Source of the DNA: a virus
Lineage: Duplodnaviria; Heunggongvirae; Uroviricota; Caudoviricetes
Virus record (IMG/VR): IMGVR_UViG_2541047936_000006
Location: 1 to 15,520 of that record
Direction: 5' to 3' (one strand)
DNA: 15,520 nt
Position 1 is the stretch's first letter. Every line of letters starts with the position of its first letter. Positions 6,038 to 14,431 of this stretch are shown here, piece by piece. Position numbers and translations under genes: made by a program. The notes below the pieces were generated by a model, which saw only the letters and a program-made list of their open reading frames with translations, searched no databases and had not been told where the DNA came from.

Positions 6038-7071
6038 TGAGCAAGAAAAAAGGGAAAACACCGCAACCTGCGGCAAAAACAATGACCGCCAGCGCCCCGA
6101 AAATGGAGGCATTCACCTTTGGTGATCCGGTGCCGGTACTCGACCGCCGTGACATTCTGGATTATGTCGAGTGCATCAGTAACGGCAGATGGTATGAGCC
6201 ACCAGTCAGCTTTACCGGTCTGGCAAAAAGCCTGCGTGCTGCCGTGCATCACAGCTCACCGATTTACGTCAAACGCAATATTCTGGCCTCGACATTTATC
6301 CCGCATCCGTGGCTTTCCCAGCAGGATTTCAGCCGCTTTGTGCTGGATTTTCTGGTGTTCGGTAATGCGTTTCTGGAAAAGCGATACAGCACCACCGGTA
6401 AGGTCATCAGACTGGAAACCTCACCGGCAAAATATACCCGCCGTGGTGTGGAAGAGGATGTTTACTGGTGGGTGCCGTCCTTCAACGAGCCGACAGCCTT
6501 CGCACCCGGCTCCGTGTTTCACCTGCTGGAGCCGGATATTAATCAGGAGCTGTACGGCCTGCCGGAATATCTCAGCGCCCTTAACTCTGCCTGGCTGAAT
6601 GAGTCGGCCACGCTGTTCCGCCGCAAGTATTACGAAAACGGCGCTCATGCCGGATACATCATGTACGTCACCGATGCCGTGCAGGATCGCAACGATATCG
6701 AAATGCTTCGCGAAAACATGGTTAAGTCGAAAGGCCGCAATAACTTTAAAAATCTGTTTCTCTATGCCCCACAGGGGAAAGCCGACGGCATTAAAATTAT
6801 CCCGCTCAGTGAAGTGGCAACGAAGGACGATTTTTTTAATATCAAAAAAGCCAGCGCCGCTGACCTGCTGGACGCGCATCGCATCCCCTTTCAGTTGATG
6901 GGGGGCAAGCCGGAGAACGTCGGGTCGCTGGGTGATATTGAGAAAGTGGCAAAGGTCTTTGTCCGCAATGAGCTTATCCCGTTACAGGACAGGATCCGCG
7001 AGATAAACGGCTGGCTCGGTCAGGAGGTCATCCGATTTAAAAACTACTCACTGGACACTGACAACGGCTGA
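6037..7071 (+). CDS. Q: Portal (capsid vertex) protein gpQ, 344 aa
   Basis: MSKKKGKTPQPAAKTMTAS...; same length as P2 gpQ and translationally coupled to P. Followed by a terminator and cos, as at the left end of the P2 genome. Confidence 0.9.
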   Translation: MSKKKGKTPQPAAKTMTASAPKMEAFTFGDPVPVLDRRDILDYVECISNGRWYEPPVSFTGLAKSLRAAVHHSSPIYVKRNILASTFIPHPWLSQQDFSRFVLDFLVFGNAFLEKRYSTTGKVIRLETSPAKYTRRGVEEDVYWWVPSFNEPTAFAPGSVFHLLEPDINQELYGLPEYLSALNSAWLNESATLFRRKYYENGAHAGYIMYVTDAVQDRNDIEMLRENMVKSKGRNNFKNLFLYAPQGKADGIKIIPLSEVATKDDFFNIKKASAADLLDAHRIPFQLMGGKPENVGSLGDIEKVAKVFVRNELIPLQDRIREINGWLGQEVIRFKNYSLDTDNG

Positions 7072-7098: not shown

Positions 7099-7240
7099 AC
7101 ACCCCGTCATCACCCCCTCACACGCTCACCACCGCACAAAACACCCCGCAGACACACCAACGCCTCAACGGGCAGACTAAGCGCCGTCACGACGCGCTCA
7201 GACGCTGAAAAAATAAAATCCGCACCACCGCCAGCGCGCA

Positions 7241-7259
7241 GTGCTTTCCCCGCCTCGCC
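7241..7259 (-). other. P2/P4/186-type cos cohesive-end sequence (19 nt)
   Basis: The plus strand reads GTGCTTTCCCCGCCTCGCC, the reverse complement of GGCGAGGCGGGGAAAGCAC, which I recall as the P2/P4 cohesive end. It lies about 170 bp beyond the Q stop, matching P2 left-end topology. Confidence 0.75.
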
Positions 7260-7518
7260 CGCCCGCTTCATGGGGAGGTTTTAATGCAAACGCATCAGGA
7301 AGGGCAGACCTAGTCACATGTAGAATACGATAGCAATAAAAAAGTCTAATTAGAATGCAAATTGATGCAACTCTATGCCCTCCAAGAACTCCAAACCTGA
7401 AAGATTTATGTAAAACATAGTGTTCGTTTCACCAAAATACATATAAACTACATTAAAATAGAAATTTGTCTCACCTATAAGCCATTTAGACAACAGATTA
7501 ATGAGGTTTGTATCACAA

Positions 7519-8664
7519 ATGACCACAAACGAGATACTTTCGCAGCTTATCAGTCTTGGACTCAAAGGGGATAAAGTTGCTTTTGTTCGGCAGGCTTCGA
7601 AACTCGCGCGTTCCTATGATTCTATGGGGCTGCCTGAGCTTGCTTCAGCCATTAGAGGTAGTATTCAAGATAAAAACACGTTTAACTTGCAGAAAGTATC
7701 ACGCAGTACATCACCTATTTTTGAACGTCTTGATACATTACCTGTAGATAAAGAAACTAAATTTGATTTAGCAGACGTAACTCAACCGTCTTCTGAAATT
7801 CAACTCCCATTGTTGAAAGATAGCACTCTGAAAAAAATTAAAGAATTTTTGACTTTCACTGAACGAGCTAAAGAATTAAAGGATGCCGGTCTTGGCGTGA
7901 CATCCTCTATGATTTTATATGGGCCACCAGGTTGTGGTAAAACCTTGACATCAAAATATATTGCATCCTGTCTAAATTTACCGCTTCTTACTGCAAGATG
8001 TGACTCCTTAGTCTCATCATATCTGGGGTCTACTTCTAAAAATATCAGGCAGCTATTTGAGTATGCAAGTAAAGCACCATGTGTTTTATTTCTAGATGAA
8101 CTAGATTCTCTAGCAAAGGCTAGAGATGATCAGCATGAGTTAGGTGAACTGAAGAGGGTGGTGGTTTCTTTATTGCAAAATATTGACAATCTACCTGAAG
8201 AAACAATATTGATTGCTGCAAGTAATCATGAAAATCTTCTAGATAGCGCAGTTTGGAGGCGCTTTGAGTATAGAATATCTATTGGATTGCCTGATTTTGA
8301 AGTCAGAAAACAACTATTTGAACAATATTCAAACATAAAAGCTACATATGACGATTTTGTTGATGACCTTGCGGAAATATCATCAGGGCTAAACTGCTCA
8401 TTTATAGAACAATGCTGCTTAAGATCTGAGCGACATGCTCTGGTTTACAATAATAAACAAATCGATACCCGATTTTTAGTCGAGGCTATCTTAGAAGCGA
8501 AGGGAGTTACATTTGATGAAGAAGATAATTTACTTATAAAGATTGTGACCACTCTCAGAGAATACAATCCCAAAAGATTTACAATACGAAAGATAGCAAA
8601 AATACTAGGGCTTTCAAATGCTAAAGTGTCAAGGCTAACTAAGAACTATAGAGAGATATTATGA
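7519..8664 (+). CDS. Classical AAA-family ATPase, 381 aa (candidate IetA-like defence ATPase)
   Basis: Walker A is GPPGCGKT (Lys141, nt 7921-7944) and Walker B is VLFLDELD (nt 8083-8106). The second region of homology, ...AASNHENLLDSAVWRRFEYRISIGLPD, resembles the Vps4/katanin-type RRFE/D motif. Start chosen at the ATG at 7519 (GAGG 12 nt upstream); the track start is 7501. The stop overlaps the next start (ATGA). Confidence 0.85.
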   Translation: MTTNEILSQLISLGLKGDKVAFVRQASKLARSYDSMGLPELASAIRGSIQDKNTFNLQKVSRSTSPIFERLDTLPVDKETKFDLADVTQPSSEIQLPLLKDSTLKKIKEFLTFTERAKELKDAGLGVTSSMILYGPPGCGKTLTSKYIASCLNLPLLTARCDSLVSSYLGSTSKNIRQLFEYASKAPCVLFLDELDSLAKARDDQHELGELKRVVVSLLQNIDNLPEETILIAASNHENLLDSAVWRRFEYRISIGLPDFEVRKQLFEQYSNIKATYDDFVDDLAEISSGLNCSFIEQCCLRSERHALVYNNKQIDTRFLVEAILEAKGVTFDEEDNLLIKIVTTLREYNPKRFTIRKIAKILGLSNAKVSRLTKNYREIL

Positions 8665-10925
8665 GTAACAAAGAAAGACCAATAAAAATAATTGAGGCGA
8701 CACCTCAAGATTTTACTGAAAAAACATATAATTTCGGAAAGAAACAACCTATCCGAACAGTAACAACTAGTCTAAAAAATAGACTCAAACAAGAAGTCGA
8801 TGACGTTAAAAATTTTTTCCAGAGCTCATTTAAAAAATGGCCCAATATACCGGCGGTGGCTAGAGTTACTCTTCATGAAAAAGCTCTTGCTAAGTCACAT
8901 CGCCCATCAAGCCTATTAGGTGATAATACATGTCCCGTAATAGGCAGTGATAATTTTGGAGAATTACTTATAAGTGTTACTGAAAAAGGGTTAGCACAAC
9001 TTCGCAAAAAAATTGAAAATAGCACTAATTCTCATAATGGGACAGTACATATTGCTGTAATTGAAAAGATCGAACCTTTTAGTCTTAACCATGATGTTAT
9101 AGATAAAAATAAATCAGATAGTTTTCTTCTGAAACTCTTTGACCATAAAGATAGAACAACTAACCGCAGTATCGACAAAGAATTAATGGAATTTGCAGAT
9201 GAACTAGGAATACAAAAACCCAAAAAGTATGATATCAGTTCAGATTTGAGTATATATGAAGTAAAAGGGAATGATAACATCGCCCAACTGGCAAGTTTTA
9301 TTGGCATACGAAAATTAGAACCTATGCCAACATTTGGTCTTACTCATACAGTATCGCAATATATTCCTGCTGAAACTCTAGACCTAGATGATTTTCCCTT
9401 ACCTCAAGAGGATAAACATTATCCACTACTCGGAATTATAGATAGCGGAGTCGATCCCAATAACAACATACTTAGGCCATGGATTTGGGATAGTTTAGAT
9501 TTAGTAAAAGGAGAACACGACTATTCTCATGGGAACATGGTTGCAAGTTTAGCAATTAATGGAAGATGGTTGAATAACTATGCTGGTTTTCCTCAATGCC
9601 AAGCTGAAATTGTTGATGTTGCAGCCTTTCCCAAAGATGGTACGCTCAAATTGCCACAATTAATGAAAGCTATCCGAGAGGCTGTGACCACCTATCCAGA
9701 AGTACGTGTATGGAATCTGTCATTAGGTTGTCAATCCCCATGTTCTGAAGACAGCTTCTCTGAATTGGGGCATTTTTTAAATGCACTTCATGATGAGCAT
9801 GATTGTCTTTTCGTCGTAGCATCCGGCAACTACATTTATGATCCTCAACGAACCTGGCCTCCTCAAGAATTAGGTGGGCATGACAGAATATCAGCCCCCG
9901 CAGATTCTGTTCGTTCATTAACTGTTGGCTCAGTTGCCCATTTAGAATCGTCTGACTCTGTGGTCAAAAGATTTGAACCTTCATCTTTTTCTAGAAGAGG
10001 TCCCGGCCCAGCCTTTATACCCAAACCAGAGATAAATCACTTTGGAGGTAATTGTGACAGTAAATTAAACTGTGAACATACCGGAATCATAGCTATTGGC
10101 GAGGACAATGCTCTTTGCGAAAGTATTGGCACAAGTTTATCAGCACCGTTAATCTCAAGTTTAGCGGCATCACTGTGGCATGAACTAGATGTTAATGGTT
10201 CTATTTCACCATCGCCTGAACGTATCAAGGCACTATTAATTCATTCTGCGTTAAAAAACTCACCAGCCAAAACGGAGCATTATGCGTTTAATTATCAAGG
10301 ATTTGGACGCCCAAGCGATCATATAAATGATATTATTGGTTGCAATAAAAATGAGATTACATTTCTATTTGAAATAGATACCCGAGAAGGTATTGAATTC
10401 AGTAGAACGCCATTTGTAATACCACAGTCATTACGTACTGAGGATGGAAAATTCACAGGTGAAATTATTATGACACTCGTTTATTCTCCACCGCTTGATT
10501 ATGACTACCCATCTGAATATTGCCGTTCTAATGTGGATGTGTCATTCGGGACTTACACTTATGATCCAGTTAACGCTAAATGGATACATAGCGGAAAAAT
10601 TCCACAAATAAAAGAAAAGAGTGAATTATTTGAAAAGGTACTGATAGAAAATGGCTTCAAATGGTCTCCAGTCAAAGTTTATAGAAAACAATTTCCGCAA
10701 GGTATAAATGGGGAGCAATGGAGACTTAAACTTGATGTTCAGAGACGAGCAGAGCAAGAGCCTCTATCTTCACCTCAACGTGCTGTATTGGCTATTACGT
10801 TAAGATCTCTTGCCAATTCTACTACAGTCTACAACGAAGCCGAGGTTGAAATAAATAATCTTGGTTGGAAAGAAACTGATATTGTTGTTCGTGAACAACC
10901 AAAAATCAGGATTCGTCAAAAATAA
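8661..10925 (+). CDS. Subtilisin-like serine peptidase (S8 family), 754 aa, with large extra N- and C-terminal regions (candidate IetS-like)
   Basis: The catalytic triad appears in the canonical order D-H-S: Asp261 in GIIDSGVD (nt 9441-9443), His290 in HGNMVAS (9528-9530), Ser492 in GTSLSAP (10134-10136), with an ASGN oxyanion-hole motif. About 250 aa N-terminal and about 220 aa C-terminal have no recognisable motifs. AT-rich codon usage. Confidence 0.9.
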   Translation: MSNKERPIKIIEATPQDFTEKTYNFGKKQPIRTVTTSLKNRLKQEVDDVKNFFQSSFKKWPNIPAVARVTLHEKALAKSHRPSSLLGDNTCPVIGSDNFGELLISVTEKGLAQLRKKIENSTNSHNGTVHIAVIEKIEPFSLNHDVIDKNKSDSFLLKLFDHKDRTTNRSIDKELMEFADELGIQKPKKYDISSDLSIYEVKGNDNIAQLASFIGIRKLEPMPTFGLTHTVSQYIPAETLDLDDFPLPQEDKHYPLLGIIDSGVDPNNNILRPWIWDSLDLVKGEHDYSHGNMVASLAINGRWLNNYAGFPQCQAEIVDVAAFPKDGTLKLPQLMKAIREAVTTYPEVRVWNLSLGCQSPCSEDSFSELGHFLNALHDEHDCLFVVASGNYIYDPQRTWPPQELGGHDRISAPADSVRSLTVGSVAHLESSDSVVKRFEPSSFSRRGPGPAFIPKPEINHFGGNCDSKLNCEHTGIIAIGEDNALCESIGTSLSAPLISSLAASLWHELDVNGSISPSPERIKALLIHSALKNSPAKTEHYAFNYQGFGRPSDHINDIIGCNKNEITFLFEIDTREGIEFSRTPFVIPQSLRTEDGKFTGEIIMTLVYSPPLDYDYPSEYCRSNVDVSFGTYTYDPVNAKWIHSGKIPQIKEKSELFEKVLIENGFKWSPVKVYRKQFPQGINGEQWRLKLDVQRRAEQEPLSSPQRAVLAITLRSLANSTTVYNEAEVEINNLGWKETDIVVREQPKIRIRQK

Positions 10926-10930
10926 GCATT

Positions 10931-10955
10931 ATGGTCACCTTTTATAGGTGACCAT
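10931..10955. terminator. Hairpin between the convergent cargo operons (possible bidirectional terminator)
   Basis: ATGGTCACC (10931-10939), loop TTTTATA, GGTGACCAT (10947-10955); a perfect 9-bp stem between the stop at 10925 and the stop at 10959. There is no strong U-tract on either side. Confidence 0.45.
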
Positions 10956-10958
10956 TTA

Positions 10959-11720
10959 CTACACCTTATTATTTTCAACTATTTTATGAATATCCATATC
11001 AAACCAAGAAACTTGCGAAATTTCTTTTAGTGGAAAGATGATACTAGTATCAGCATCCTCAAGCTCTCTATATTCATTCACCAAGATTACTTTCAATGAA
11101 TCCTTATCTCTATACCCAGAGATAATAGGATAGATTGAAACATACTGGTTAGGTCCTTCTTTCTCGTTAGGCTCACCTAATGCGTTAACAATTCCTACAT
11201 ATGTCTTTTTATTTTGCAACGTAATAAGTATTGAACGTCTATCAACTAACGAATCAAAAAATATTTCATCCATTGGATTATCATTAATAAGCTCTTGCCT
11301 CATCCTTAGCATGACAAGATTCTCATAATCAATATTGGCAGCCTTTACCCCTTGGATATAATTTATAATTTTAGCTCTATATATAACCAAATATCTAGCA
11401 CCGACACTCCATATCCAAGCCAAAAATATCGTTCCACATGAAAGTAAAATCATCCATCCTATGATTCTTTCAGTACCATTGTCACTAAGTTTGAGATCTA
11501 ATTGTTCCCGAACCATCGTGACAGGATGGAAGCTCGGACATATCCATTTTATTAAGTAAGCTATAATCAATGTCCATATAAAACACCACAGACCAAAGGC
11601 GGCTGACTTCATATATAACAACTGCCCATCATAACGGTGTAATCTATAGAAATGATAAGGATGAGTGGTTAATACAATATAACCACTCACAAGTAATGGA
11701 ATAATTAATAAAGCAAACAT
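10959..11720 (-). CDS. Uncharacterised membrane protein, 253 aa: three predicted N-terminal TM helices plus a soluble C-terminal domain of about 145 aa
   Basis: ATG at 11720. Hydrophobic stretches are FALLIIPLLVSGYIVLTT, AAFGLWCFIWTLIIAYLIKWI and IIGWMILLSCGTIFLAWIWSV. Its start lies 2 nt after the stop of the upstream small ORF (TAATAATG). No family recognised. Confidence 0.7.
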   Translation of the reverse strand: MFALLIIPLLVSGYIVLTTHPYHFYRLHRYDGQLLYMKSAAFGLWCFIWTLIIAYLIKWICPSFHPVTMVREQLDLKLSDNGTERIIGWMILLSCGTIFLAWIWSVGARYLVIYRAKIINYIQGVKAANIDYENLVMLRMRQELINDNPMDEIFFDSLVDRRSILITLQNKKTYVGIVNALGEPNEKEGPNQYVSIYPIISGYRDKDSLKVILVNEYRELEDADTSIIFPLKEISQVSWFDMDIHKIVENNKV

Positions 11721-11722
11721 TA

Positions 11723-11959
11723 TTAATTCCCTTTAGCCATTTTTTCTTCTTGCTTTACCTGCTCAGAAACTATTTTTCTTGCTTTAATTTTCATCAATTT
11801 TACTGTATCTGAGCTTGCCAAGTCTTCTTTAGATGTGATAATCGCGCCTCGACCTACCACCTCAACAGTGTTTGTTCCAGATGCTTCAAGCCTCCTCGCC
11901 AGTTCTCTTTCCTTTTCAATAGCAGCTTTACCTATAATACGTTCAAATATATTCATCAT
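11723..11959 (-). CDS. Small charged hypothetical protein, 78 aa, first gene of a two-gene operon
   Basis: ATGATG start at 11959/11956 with a strong SD (GGAGG about 6 nt upstream on the minus strand). The stop is tightly coupled to the membrane-protein start. Sequence MMNIFERIIGKAAIEKERELARRLEASGTNTVEVVGRG...; no family recognised. Confidence 0.6.
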   Translation of the reverse strand: MMNIFERIIGKAAIEKERELARRLEASGTNTVEVVGRGAIITSKEDLASSDTVKLMKIKARKIVSEQVKQEEKMAKGN

Positions 11960-12050
11960 TTAACCTCCACTTGATTGATGCCAAGATAGTAATCACCTCC
12001 TCACAATATCTTACCAACCTAACAATTAACAGAACACTGTGTATAAGTCC

Positions 12051-12078
12051 AGTATAGTTTAATTAATAAATTAGGCAA
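12051..12078 (-). promoter_or_regulatory. Candidate sigma70 promoter for the minus-strand two-gene operon
   Basis: On the minus strand: TTGCCT (-35), a 16-nt spacer, TATACT (-10), about 90 nt upstream of the ATG at 11959 in an AT-rich intergenic region. Found by eye only. Confidence 0.3.
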
Positions 12079-12473
12079 ATCTATCAAAATGGTATTTTGT
12101 TAAAAATTCAGCTAACTCTGAGGTTGGTAAAACAGTCCACCAGATGTATCGCTAAAGCACTTAGAAACCACTATAACCATCCTAAGTGTACCAGTCAGTC
12201 TGTTTGTCTAATCGCATCACTATGCTCGTTATTCTATCCCCCGCCAATCCTGAGCTGGCTGCGTTCTCTATCGTCTGCGTGGTGGCGGTGCAGCGCTGGG
12301 CTGACCGATATAGTTAAGCCATACGTAATTATCCCGGACTATTTCGGCACACCCGACCAGCTCATCGGGCGTCAGATTTTCGTTGACCATAATCTGCTGT
12401 AGACGGTGAACAATGGCCATCAGCTTGATATTTTTAGTTTTATGCTGCGGTATCTCGCCTGGTATTCTGTGCA

Positions 12474-12929
12474 TTATCCAAGCCACCCGTTTTGCTGTGC
12501 ACGCTCCACCTGTTCATCTGAATAGTTCCATATCCCATCCGCACCAACCACTGCCCCGCCAGACATCCCCGTCTCTGGTTCATACACAACAGCAAGGCCG
12601 AGCTGATGCATAATTTCATGATTAATTCTGAATACCAGACCACGCTCACTAAGTTCTTTCCAGTTCACAAACTCATATGCGCCTGTATTAAGCAGCTCAA
12701 TACTTAGCAAGACATAATCTTCCAGCCAGTCTGACAAGTCAGTAACATCTGTTATCCGGGCTTCAACCTTTCGCCCCGTATACACACCCTGCACCCATTC
12801 ATGCAAAATCAACGTGTCCCCGCGCTCATAATTACGGTCATTTTTCCGAAACTCTGCGCGTTTCTTTCCTTCCAGCACAAGGTCAAAATATTTTGCGTGC
12901 AGCTTTACCTCGTGAATTTTTGCCATCAT
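12474..12929 (-). CDS. DUF3850-like (ASCH/PUA-like fold) domain protein, about 151 aa
   Basis: MAKIHEVKLHAKYFDLVLEGKKRAEFRKNDRNYERGDTLILHEW...YTGRKVEARITDV matches the DUF3850 consensus as I recall it. ATG at 12929 with GGAG about 9 nt upstream; it overlaps the stop of the A fragment (ATGATG/TGA). The track ORF starts at a GTG at 12962. Confidence 0.65.
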   Translation of the reverse strand: MMAKIHEVKLHAKYFDLVLEGKKRAEFRKNDRNYERGDTLILHEWVQGVYTGRKVEARITDVTDLSDWLEDYVLLSIELLNTGAYEFVNWKELSERGLVFRINHEIMHQLGLAVVYEPETGMSGGAVVGADGIWNYSDEQVERAQQNGWLG

Positions 12930-14038
12930 TTCCACTCCATTACTGTTGAGAATCCCGGCCACTCATCAGCGACCGGATACGTGAATTTTTTCCCGTCATA
13001 ATTTACGGTCGCGCCACGCGCCAGCGCCTCAAGCTCCCATCGCTGCGGCCTGATACCGTTCTGAGCAAGGTCAACGCGGATACGGGTAATTTGCATTCTT
13101 TCCGACCGGGTCAGTCTGGCCGATGGTGCAATTTCATGTGGTTTTAACGGGCTTCCGTTTCTTTGCTGACGGTTTGGCGTTCTCAGGTCGTGTTTTAATG
13201 CACCCCTGAGCGCCCTCACGACCTCCGGGTCATTCCATTCGATAACACCATCATCAACCAGATTAAGCACTGCTGCGGCGTGTTCAGAAGGCGTGGGAGC
13301 CGGTGACGAAGTATCACCACTGGTGAGCTTTCCACAGTTATTGACAGGACTCCGAGGCGCGGCGATGCCGCTTTTTAAAGTCAAAGGCTCAACGACCGGC
13401 ACTTTCGGAACAATGCGCCAGTCCGTGGTTCTGGTGATATGAATATGACGCGCGCCGAGATGCGGCGCGTAAATGCCGACCACTCTCTCGACTTCTTCCT
13501 CGTACTCGTTAACTTCATCCGACGGACTACGGGCGACCCTGACAGTCTGACAATCGCGCGAGACATTTGCCCCACCCTGCGCGCTGATATACAGCGCAAA
13601 ATCACCACTGTCTGCGGCGGCGCGTGCAGCCTCGACGCGCTCGTCAAACTCATCAGCAATGCTGACGCCGCGAGGCAATTTGCGTAGTTCACGGTAAGCC
13701 CCCATTGTCGGCAGACCAACCGTTTTAAATTGCGGGATGCGCCACGTTGACGCCCATGCGGTAACAGCCGCCGCAGTATCTTTCAGCGGTCTGCCGGTAT
13801 CGTTATCGAGCTGACCATCCAGTGCATAGCCGTCGATATTTTTTGAAATGTATTTCGCGATATATCCCGCAGCACCGCCCCGGTTACCGATGTAAAGAGC
13901 AAAACCTTCTTTCGACAGCAAATCAGATGGGCGCTCTGAAATCTGAATGCTTTTACGTTTGGCTTCATTTTCGAAACTTGCCTCATCGCTAGTTGGACAA
14001 GAAATTTCTACATTTGTCGTCACTTTGCTATCCTCCAT
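12926..14038 (-). CDS. Replication initiation endonuclease gpA family, C-terminal portion only (about 370 aa against 761 aa in P2)
   Basis: Contains the rolling-circle initiator active-site Tyr motif GYIAKYISKNIDG about 60 residues from the start, where P2 gpA has its catalytic Tyr near residue 450. No cox or B gene lies upstream. Possible starts are the ATG at 14038 or the GTG at 14023 (GGAGGA 8 nt upstream). Confidence 0.65.
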   Translation of the reverse strand: MEDSKVTTNVEISCPTSDEASFENEAKRKSIQISERPSDLLSKEGFALYIGNRGGAAGYIAKYISKNIDGYALDGQLDNDTGRPLKDTAAAVTAWASTWRIPQFKTVGLPTMGAYRELRKLPRGVSIADEFDERVEAARAAADSGDFALYISAQGGANVSRDCQTVRVARSPSDEVNEYEEEVERVVGIYAPHLGARHIHITRTTDWRIVPKVPVVEPLTLKSGIAAPRSPVNNCGKLTSGDTSSPAPTPSEHAAAVLNLVDDGVIEWNDPEVVRALRGALKHDLRTPNRQQRNGSPLKPHEIAPSARLTRSERMQITRIRVDLAQNGIRPQRWELEALARGATVNYDGKKFTYPVADEWPGFSTVMEWK

Positions 14039-14060
14039 AAGATTTGCGATTCACCAACTG

Positions 14061-14085
14061 GAGCCATCTAGAGCCTTTTTGAGCG
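14061..14085. promoter_or_regulatory. Three 10-bp-phased direct repeats (GAGCC/GAGCC/GAGCG) in the switch region; candidate C-repressor operator
   Basis: GAGCCatcta GAGCCttttt GAGCGaatca at 14061, 14071 and 14081, between the divergent A fragment and C. P2-family repressors are known to bind direct rather than inverted repeats. A TATAAT hexamer lies at 14109-14114. Confidence 0.4.
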
Positions 14086-14131
14086 AATCACAAATTGCCA
14101 AGTAACAATATAATTGGAGATTAGCAAAATT

Positions 14132-14431
14132 ATGTCAAGTGAACAAAGTGAGAAACTAAAGCTCATCCGTGAATCCGAACGCCTTAAAACTAAGGAACTT
14201 GCTGAATTAATTGGAATTAATTACTACACATATCATGGATATGAATCAGGAAAATCAAAAATGCCTATGGAAGCAGGTATGAAGCTGTTTAAGCATCCAC
14301 GCTTTCGCAAGTATCGTGACTGGTTCATGTTTGATGAAACAGATCCAGCAGCTGGACAAATAGCCCCGGCTCTCGCACACATTGGGCAAGACTCAACAAC
14401 CTTGCACCACTCAGACCAGAAGACTGGCTGA
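14132..14431 (+). CDS. C: Immunity repressor C (P2 C family), 99 aa
   Basis: ATG at 14132 with GGAG 12 nt upstream; the track starts at a TTG at 14114. The C-terminus ...AGQIAPALAHIGQDSTTLHHSDQKTG parallels P2 C (...SGQIAPALAHFGQNETTSPHSGQKTG), with an HTH-like segment near the N-terminus. Confidence 0.8.
   Translation: MSSEQSEKLKLIRESERLKTKELAELIGINYYTYHGYESGKSKMPMEAGMKLFKHPRFRKYRDWFMFDETDPAAGQIAPALAHIGQDSTTLHHSDQKTG

Follow-up and report, generated by a model that had tools for sequence, protein, structure and literature searches.

A conserved gene pair for a small basic protein and a membrane protein with a predicted Sm-like domain diverges together with an IetAS clade on enterobacterial mobile elements

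Introduction

What does a tightly coupled pair of genes of no recognised family do in the defence hotspot of a P2-like prophage, and does it work with the ATPase-protease operon that it faces? The question is raised by a stretch of 15,520 nucleotides (the window, by which we mean the whole stretch analysed), for which a sequence-only reading had described a minus-strand operon of two genes encoding a 78-aa protein and a three-helix membrane protein. The two ORFs are where that reading had placed them. Gene A (11723-11959, minus strand) encodes 78 aa according to the ORF reading of the window, and gene B (10959-11720, minus strand) encodes a predicted inner-membrane protein of 253 aa. The function guessed at the time, namely abortive infection, superinfection exclusion or a toxin-antitoxin role, is plausible.

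The two proteins, WP_000457800 and WP_021570510, are listed as 'hypothetical' at P2 hotspot loci in Table S5 of an earlier survey, where the neighbours of both are AAA/HTH_50 and Peptidase_S8 proteins, and Peptidase_S8 is absent from the table of tested systems in the same work (Rousset 2022, PMC9122126). A full-text literature search with both protein accessions returned no mention apart from this Table S5 entry, and the pair is thus catalogued yet uncharacterised. The text of a 2026 NAR paper on P2/P4 hotspots does not mention IetAS, and no earlier report of the IetAS linkage or of an Sm-like fold assignment for the pair was found in the literature searched. New here are the family-wide pairing of A with B, the combination of transmembrane (TM) helices with an Sm-like domain, and a cassette in which the pair co-diverges with IetAS. 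We propose that A and B form a two-gene membrane-acting conflict module which, in the lineage of the window, acts as an accessory to a divergent IetAS anti-phage system; we hold this reading tentatively, at a probability of roughly 0.45.

Results and discussion

The operon lies in the AT-rich cargo block of a P2-like prophage

The window represents a P2-like E. coli prophage, 98.9% identical over 12.6 kb to the prophage of strain ABWA45. Its capsid, terminase and portal genes extend to position 7071 and are followed by an AT-rich block (7100-12400) of 33-42% GC, as compared to ~53-60% in the structural genes. On the 3' side of this block lie a DUF3850/ASCH gene, a truncated gpA and an integrase. 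The hotspot is of the P2 tin/old type, running from the portal gene to gpA, and the site of the block is the P2 defence hotspot described between these two genes (Rousset 2022, PMC9122126). Genes A, B, ietA and ietS have a GC content of 33-38% versus 53% for the portal gene and therefore share one AT-rich cargo block, as had been claimed for the pair and the ATPase-protease operon.

Between the A-B pair and gpA, a protein with DUF3850/ASCH and DUF7415 is encoded at 12474-12962. Many loci of the P2 hotspot have DUF3850/ASCH at their margin (Rousset 2022 Table S5, PMC9122126), and for this reason it is probably a hotspot-flanking phage gene and not cargo. A 72-aa ORF at 12268-12486 is the counterpart of a 68-aa ABWA45 protein annotated as hypothetical. 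As compared to ABWA45, the window is devoid of an early region of ~4.5 kb, such that 13886-14192 stands for 14987-19822 of the ABWA45 locus (L001); the loss comprises replication gene A over its N-terminal two-thirds as well as DUF5405, TraR, DUF2732, cox and a copy of IS30. Since the 370-aa ORF at 12926-14038 retains only the C-terminal part of gpA, the prophage is probably replication-defective.

A and B are real, translationally coupled genes

The junction between A and B reads TAA-TA-ATG (TAATAATG), and a Shine-Dalgarno sequence, GGAGG (11964-11968, minus strand), precedes the ATG of A by 4 nt; the tight coupling and the strong ribosome-binding site noticed earlier were thereby both confirmed from the letters. 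A consensus scan gave a candidate sigma-70-like promoter for the operon at 12051-12078 on the minus strand (TTGCCT, 16 nt, TATACT), ~90 nt upstream of the ATG of A, which is a pattern match only, with 9 of 12 consensus positions. The 33-nt spacer between the stop codons of ietS and B harbours a 10-bp GC-containing hairpin (10931-10955, no strand assigned), which is probably a shared bidirectional terminator. A hairpin lies between the convergent stops in 7 of 8 other loci examined that carry the same four genes, with unrelated sequences, the exception (L088) having only a weak fold of -8.4 kcal/mol in this position. No RNA element was found in or near the operon by an Rfam scan of the window.

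Comparison with the Enterobacter copy (dS ~1.4) gave dN/dS values of 0.044 for A and 0.048 for B. Both genes are therefore under strong purifying selection (dN/dS ~0.05), and this low ratio, along with 241 homologues of B found in one search and 353 of A, shows that they are real genes and not chance ORFs.

The impression that the pair matches no recognised family was borne out by the profile searches. When A and B were searched singly, Pfam and NCBIfam gave no match, and nothing consistent emerged across the family alignments; an NCBIfam STM3941 match is noise (16 bits against a cut-off of 40). No PADLOC defence protein matched A or B at E <= 1. The only matches of the pair were to two PHROG families of unknown function, phrog_3630 (E = 3e-86) and phrog_37504 (E = 3e-53).

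Gene A encodes a small basic cytoplasmic protein

The product of gene A is a small, soluble, basic (pI 9.6) cytoplasmic protein. In its structural model (pLDDT 74.6), an initial helix leads into a beta-hairpin with an invariant VVGRG turn, after which come two more helices, the first short and the second long. Among 55 diverse members compared, residues V34, G36, R37, G38 and A60 do not vary. A profile search placed the family in 353 clusters, every one of which is labelled hypothetical. An 82-aa E. coli homologue of A (L002, 7749-7997) is named 'TfoX/Sxy family transcriptional regulator of competence genes' in one public source; as no Pfam TfoX match backs the label, it appears to be a mis-annotation. 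We also looked for the known DNA-binding folds of antitoxins (RHH, AbrB/MazE, HTH, Phd/YefM) in A and found none of them; an AbrB/MazE-like fold was tried as a candidate and was unsupported.

Gene B encodes a three-TM protein with a predicted Sm-like cytoplasmic domain

B has three hydrophobic segments (1-21, 39-64 and 85-108). By the positive-inside rule it is oriented N-out/C-in, with the C-terminal half in the cytoplasm, and the same orientation was obtained for B of the window and, on average, for 32 members of the family, whose mean net charge is +2.0 in loop 1, -0.7 in loop 2 and +2.6 after TM3. The cytoplasmic part of B is acidic (pI 4.9). An AlphaFold2 model built with 44 homologues as input (mean pLDDT 80.8) showed three TM helices and two short helices, followed by a helix and six strands (149-239). 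The C-terminal cytoplasmic domain (~149-248) is predicted to be an Sm/Hfq/WYL-like barrel, and the model has the hallmarks of the Sm fold, an N-terminal helix followed by a strongly bent five-stranded antiparallel sheet. Sequence profiles of Sm, LSM, Hfq and WYL did not match B, and the assignment is therefore a predicted, fold-level one. Pfam gave no match for B of the window or for 44 family members even at E <= 10. A PDB profile search with the B family returned only coiled-coil and noise matches, and Foldseek against viral structures (BFVD) returned only weak, unnamed Sm-like matches with E > 1e-3. Thus, B is a three-TM protein with a large C-terminal cytoplasmic domain for which structure modelling predicts an Sm-like barrel.

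Conservation of B, scored across alpha-, beta- and gamma-proteobacteria and a spirochaete, is concentrated in cytoplasmic loop 1, with the invariant motif LHRY[DE]GQxLY and in addition G43, and in the barrel, with KxYVG, EPxE, the invariant P-[IM]-SGYRDKD, Y217 and F240. The family is large. When 1.84 billion representatives were searched with a profile of the B family, 2,620 clusters (counted at 50% identity) passed a threshold of E <= 1e-3, and 1,297 passed one of E <= 1e-10. Most of the 150 best clusters are proteins of 240-340 aa matched over their full length, and about one-fifth are shorter and apparently partial.

A and B are paired across Proteobacteria

We took a census of 59 loci from collections with one genome per species, 47 of which have an intact B. 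An A-family ORF was found directly upstream of B on the same strand in 45 of these 47, often with overlapping stop and start codons; one of the two unpaired loci is at a contig end and the other is in a distant metagenome-assembled genome. The pair ranges over alpha-, beta- and gamma-proteobacteria and a spirochaete. The fixed order, the tight coupling and the opposite charges argue that the A and B proteins act together, as far as this can be read from sequence.

A small upstream gene coupled to a larger downstream one, as seen at TAATAATG, is also the layout of type II toxin-antitoxin systems. The pair may be an addiction module in which B is a membrane toxin and A its labile antitoxin, the main role being to stabilise the mobile element that carries it and any effect on phages being secondary. 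Near-universal pairing is consistent with this, and so is carriage on prophages, islands and IncC plasmids. In Arsenophonus endosymbionts, which have the pair without IetAS, B is broken and an A-family ORF is still detected upstream. IetAS, the partner system, likewise entered the literature as a toxin-antitoxin system that stabilises plasmids (PMC13069673). However, A has no recognisable antitoxin DNA-binding fold, and in several species-level Pseudomonas genomes the pair has stayed at a single syntenic locus. We therefore regard an addiction module as an unlikely main role of the pair.

In one clade the pair forms a four-gene cassette with IetAS

The operon facing the pair, noted earlier as an ATPase-protease operon convergent with it, was identified with PADLOC as ietA/ietS. 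ietA (7501-8664, plus strand) encodes a AAA ATPase (IetA, E = 9e-132) and ietS (8661-10925, plus strand), which converges on B, an S8 protease (IetS, E = 1e-273), both matched over their full length; the window thus has the adjacent AAA ATPase and S8 protease that characterise IetAS. In NCBIfam the matches are again full-length, and the scores (387 bits against a cut-off of 510 for IteA, 782 against 900 for IteS) are below the equivalog cut-offs. The two genes therefore belong to a divergent IetAS clade, and for the same reason their PGAP names are no more specific than 'AAA family ATPase' and 'S8 family peptidase'.

Every intact B with at least 54% identity to B of the window is in a cassette in which A-B is convergent with IetS-IetA, with a gap of 25-50 nt between the stops (33 nt in the window). 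This identical convergent layout was found at 22 loci of 8 lineages on at least 5 mobile-element backbones: P2-like prophages (E. coli, Yersinia, Rahnella), a Rac-like lambdoid prophage, P4-type islands of Salmonella/Citrobacter and of Providencia, a resolvase/ParB element and, in Pectobacterium, an IS-flanked islet adjoining cpxAR. The four proteins have identity tiers in common (100%, ~84-91%, ~61-78% and ~52-63%). Across the 8 lineages, the pairwise-identity matrices correlate with r = 0.98 for B-IetS, 0.94 for IetA-IetS, 0.93 for A-B and 0.92 for A-IetS. The association of A and B with IetAS is thus consistent and their phylogeny common, within this clade only, and in the clade of the window A and B move and diverge together with IetA and IetS. 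The pair had been taken for a mere neighbour of the ATPase-protease operon; the adjacency holds, whereas the free-standing status does not in this lineage, where the four genes form a co-diverging cassette.

Outside this clade the two parts were found separately. Neither A nor B was seen near canonical IteAS (E. coli CT282; a Dongshaea plasmid with an IetS 44% identical) or near metagenomic IetS homologues of 28-42% identity. Two metagenomic IetS copies at 90% identity do have A-B nearby. IetAS was never seen beside the more distant A-B pairs (<= 48% identity). As most copies stand alone without IetAS, the pair is an autonomous and ancient two-gene module, and one A-B lineage appears to have been captured by a divergent IetAS clade and to have evolved with it as a unit since.

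The linkage can also be read as hitch-hiking. The pair would then be an autonomous two-gene phage-exclusion system whose proteins do not work together with those of IetAS, the two units being kept side by side by transfer as a small defence islet or by additive or synergistic action. Most family members have no IetAS, which indicates that the pair has a function of its own and that the linkage could be co-transfer only, and IetS homologues of 28-44% identity occur without the pair. In addition, A-B and ietAS are separate convergent transcription units with their own predicted promoter and terminator signals, and canonical IetAS works as two genes, both of which count against an accessory role of A-B in IetAS. 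Defence systems are known to co-localise and to act synergistically without physical coupling (bioRxiv 10.1101/2022.08.21.504612), which we counted in favour of hitch-hiking. On the other hand, B follows IetS as tightly as IetA does (r = 0.98 versus 0.94), and no partner was swapped across 8 lineages and at least 5 backbones, down to ~55% identity. Neighbours that merely hitch-hike in hotspots are normally shuffled. The lack of any swap therefore suggests, at the level of sequence comparison, that A-B and IetAS are functionally coupled and not merely co-transferred, and we consider hitch-hiking a somewhat doubtful account of the cassette, though one to be taken seriously.

The wider family is found both on mobile elements and at chromosomal sites

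In Enterobacterales, every A-B copy examined is accessory cargo of a mobile element. The version of the window is rare, being present in 12 of 5,426 complete E. coli genomes. The sequence-only reading had proposed to survey whether the pair co-occurs in other P2/P4 hotspots, and versions of it were indeed found in other P2 hotspots, P4-type integrase islands, prophage ends and IncC plasmids. P2 hotspot copies are present in E. coli, Yersinia and Rahnella. The same P2 hotspot carries a distant pair (72 + 280 aa) in Klebsiella phage ST15-OXA48phi14.1 (L075, 4783-7492), where it adjoins a SEFIR-domain protein, and a very distant pair (58 + 281 aa) in Salmonella phage SEN5 (L101, 1923-2944). There may thus be a wider superfamily of small and membrane protein pairs populating P2 hotspots. 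Cronobacter phage phiES15 has the pair between int and attP, and copies at prophage ends were found in E. coli (a 48%-identical relative, on 841 contigs) and Klebsiella. Salmonella IncC plasmids carry a 33%-identical A-B pair (L076, 3872-5515).

Some of these copies have neighbours worth recording. In some Klebsiella pneumoniae (L078, L081, 1-5228), an integrase island lies directly beside the prophage-end pair and contains SMC/AAA_23, MComp1 and CTD1 proteins, a predicted conflict system. The gene just upstream of the IncC pair encodes a AAA family ATPase of 547 aa, and a mer operon and a DNA methyltransferase gene are nearby.

A different picture was obtained in Pseudomonas (L082-L085, L033-L057), where many species have inherited the pair vertically at a chromosomal site with conserved synteny. 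In the P. oryzihabitans group, 11 genomes, each from a different species, have the same flanks, of which 60-98% can be aligned, and in the P. luteola group the pair is at one site, between GGDEF and MFS genes. No mobile-element genes were seen within 6 kb of the syntenic Pseudomonas pair. Such vertical inheritance is unusual for a presumed defence module. Among 22 diverse loci outside Enterobacterales, the 129 neighbouring ORFs are mostly housekeeping genes; those related to defence or mobility are two CBASS cyclases, NucC, AbiEi, DndH, two methyltransferases and two integrases. With this handful among 129 neighbours, a general enrichment in defence islands outside Enterobacterales is weak. 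The A-B family is thus not purely defence-island or mobile-element cargo, and the claim that the pair is defence-hotspot cargo holds for Enterobacterales but does not extend to the syntenic Pseudomonas site or to the mostly housekeeping neighbourhoods elsewhere.

The Pseudomonas copies and the housekeeping neighbours count against a conflict module. The syntenic chromosomal copies would fit a physiological membrane function of the family that has nothing to do with phages or mobile elements, such as a regulated channel or a role in the envelope or in stress, with the genes picked up later by enterobacterial mobile elements. Against this, the enterobacterial copies examined without exception occupy accessory cargo slots, including the P2 defence hotspot, so few complete E. 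coli genomes have the pair of the window, and in one clade the linkage to a known defence system is strict. A physiological function of this kind is, in our view, improbable.

Proposed mode of action

Returning to the conflict module with IetAS as its partner in the clade of the window, we counted in its favour the near-universal pairing, the topology of B, the clade-specific cassette, the mobile-element cargo positions in Enterobacterales and the charge complementarity between A (pI 9.6) and the cytoplasmic part of B (pI 4.9). Proteins with the Sm-like fold typically form hexameric or heptameric rings. We envisage that B would oligomerise through its Sm-like domain and that the TM helices of the oligomer would make up or control an inner-membrane pore. 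A, in fixed ratio to B, would dock on the acidic cytoplasmic domain of B through its VVGRG hairpin and would either keep B inactive or couple it to the trigger. Phage infection would release the A-B complex, whereupon the membrane would be depolarised or entry blocked, and the phage would be stopped. In the IetAS-linked clade the likely upstream switch would be the cytoplasmic IetS protease with the IetA ATPase, for example by cleaving or unfolding A, whereas free-standing A-B pairs would themselves have to sense the trigger.

A bolder form of this proposal is that A-B represents a new class of Sm-domain-gated membrane effectors, in which IetS (with IetA) removes or remodels A and thereby releases the B pore. 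We rate this as a long shot. If true, a cytoplasmic protease/ATPase toxin-antitoxin pair would become a four-component system in the IetAS-linked clade, and bacteria would have a protease-triggered membrane-execution pathway with a logic like that of protease-activated gasdermins, built from unrelated parts.

The pair is of interest irrespective of these details. It represents a large and phylogenetically broad family without an entry in Pfam, NCBIfam or PADLOC, and many proteobacterial genes would gain an annotation from its characterisation, which could also reveal how a fold known chiefly for binding RNA and small ligands is put to use at the membrane. For IetAS, whose mechanism is not yet established (PMC13069673), a clade that invariably carries a membrane module offers a testable candidate for the downstream effector or regulator.

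Comparison with known systems

The proposal of a new system presupposed that the pair is neither a housekeeping transporter nor a holin/lysis module, and profile searches as well as the position of the pair agree with this. Profile and fold comparisons of B gave no match to a transporter or channel, MscS included. No holin profile matched, and the pair is located outside the lysis cassette; in the ABWA45 prophage the holin, endolysin and LysB/C genes are ~10 kb from it.

Lambda RexAB is expressed from the prophage and combines a soluble upstream partner with a multi-pass inner-membrane partner thought to depolarise the cell. A-B resembles it in two-gene layout and logic, on paper only. RexA has ~280 aa, and RexB has 4 TM helices and is without an Sm-like domain. 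No homology of A or B to RexA or RexB was found in Pfam, among annotated PHROGs or in PADLOC, and membership of A-B in RexAB, having neither sequence nor profile similarity behind it, is unsupported.

With the Sm/LSm/Hfq/WYL families B shares the predicted fold, but its conserved motifs (EPxE, SGYRDKD) are not Sm1/Sm2. To our knowledge, these families have not been described in fusion with a three-TM anchor, and we know of no earlier description of a three-TM anchor with an Sm-like barrel and an obligatory small partner. MscS-type channels have three TM helices in N-out/C-in orientation, followed by a cytoplasmic Sm-like beta domain, and form an oligomeric ring; the three TM helices, the orientation and the cytoplasmic Sm-like domain are all predicted for B. 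In Hailong, the HalA channel has a cytoplasmic ligand-binding crown and is held shut by HalB until phage infection (PMC13434031). The likeness of A-B to Hailong is in concept only, a two-gene membrane channel with its partner, the proteins not being homologous.

The closest comparison is with IetAS itself, of which ietA and ietS of the window are full-length homologues. A and B are outside any published IetAS definition, they are convergent with ietAS and not part of its operon, and the pair is far more widespread without IetAS than with it. IetAS is, however, known to gain extra modules that become essential, as with the ietH helicase in ietHAS (PMC13069673), and A-B is likewise fixed to one IetAS clade. 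The linkage of A-B would thus be the second case, ietHAS being the first, in which IetAS has taken on additional parts.
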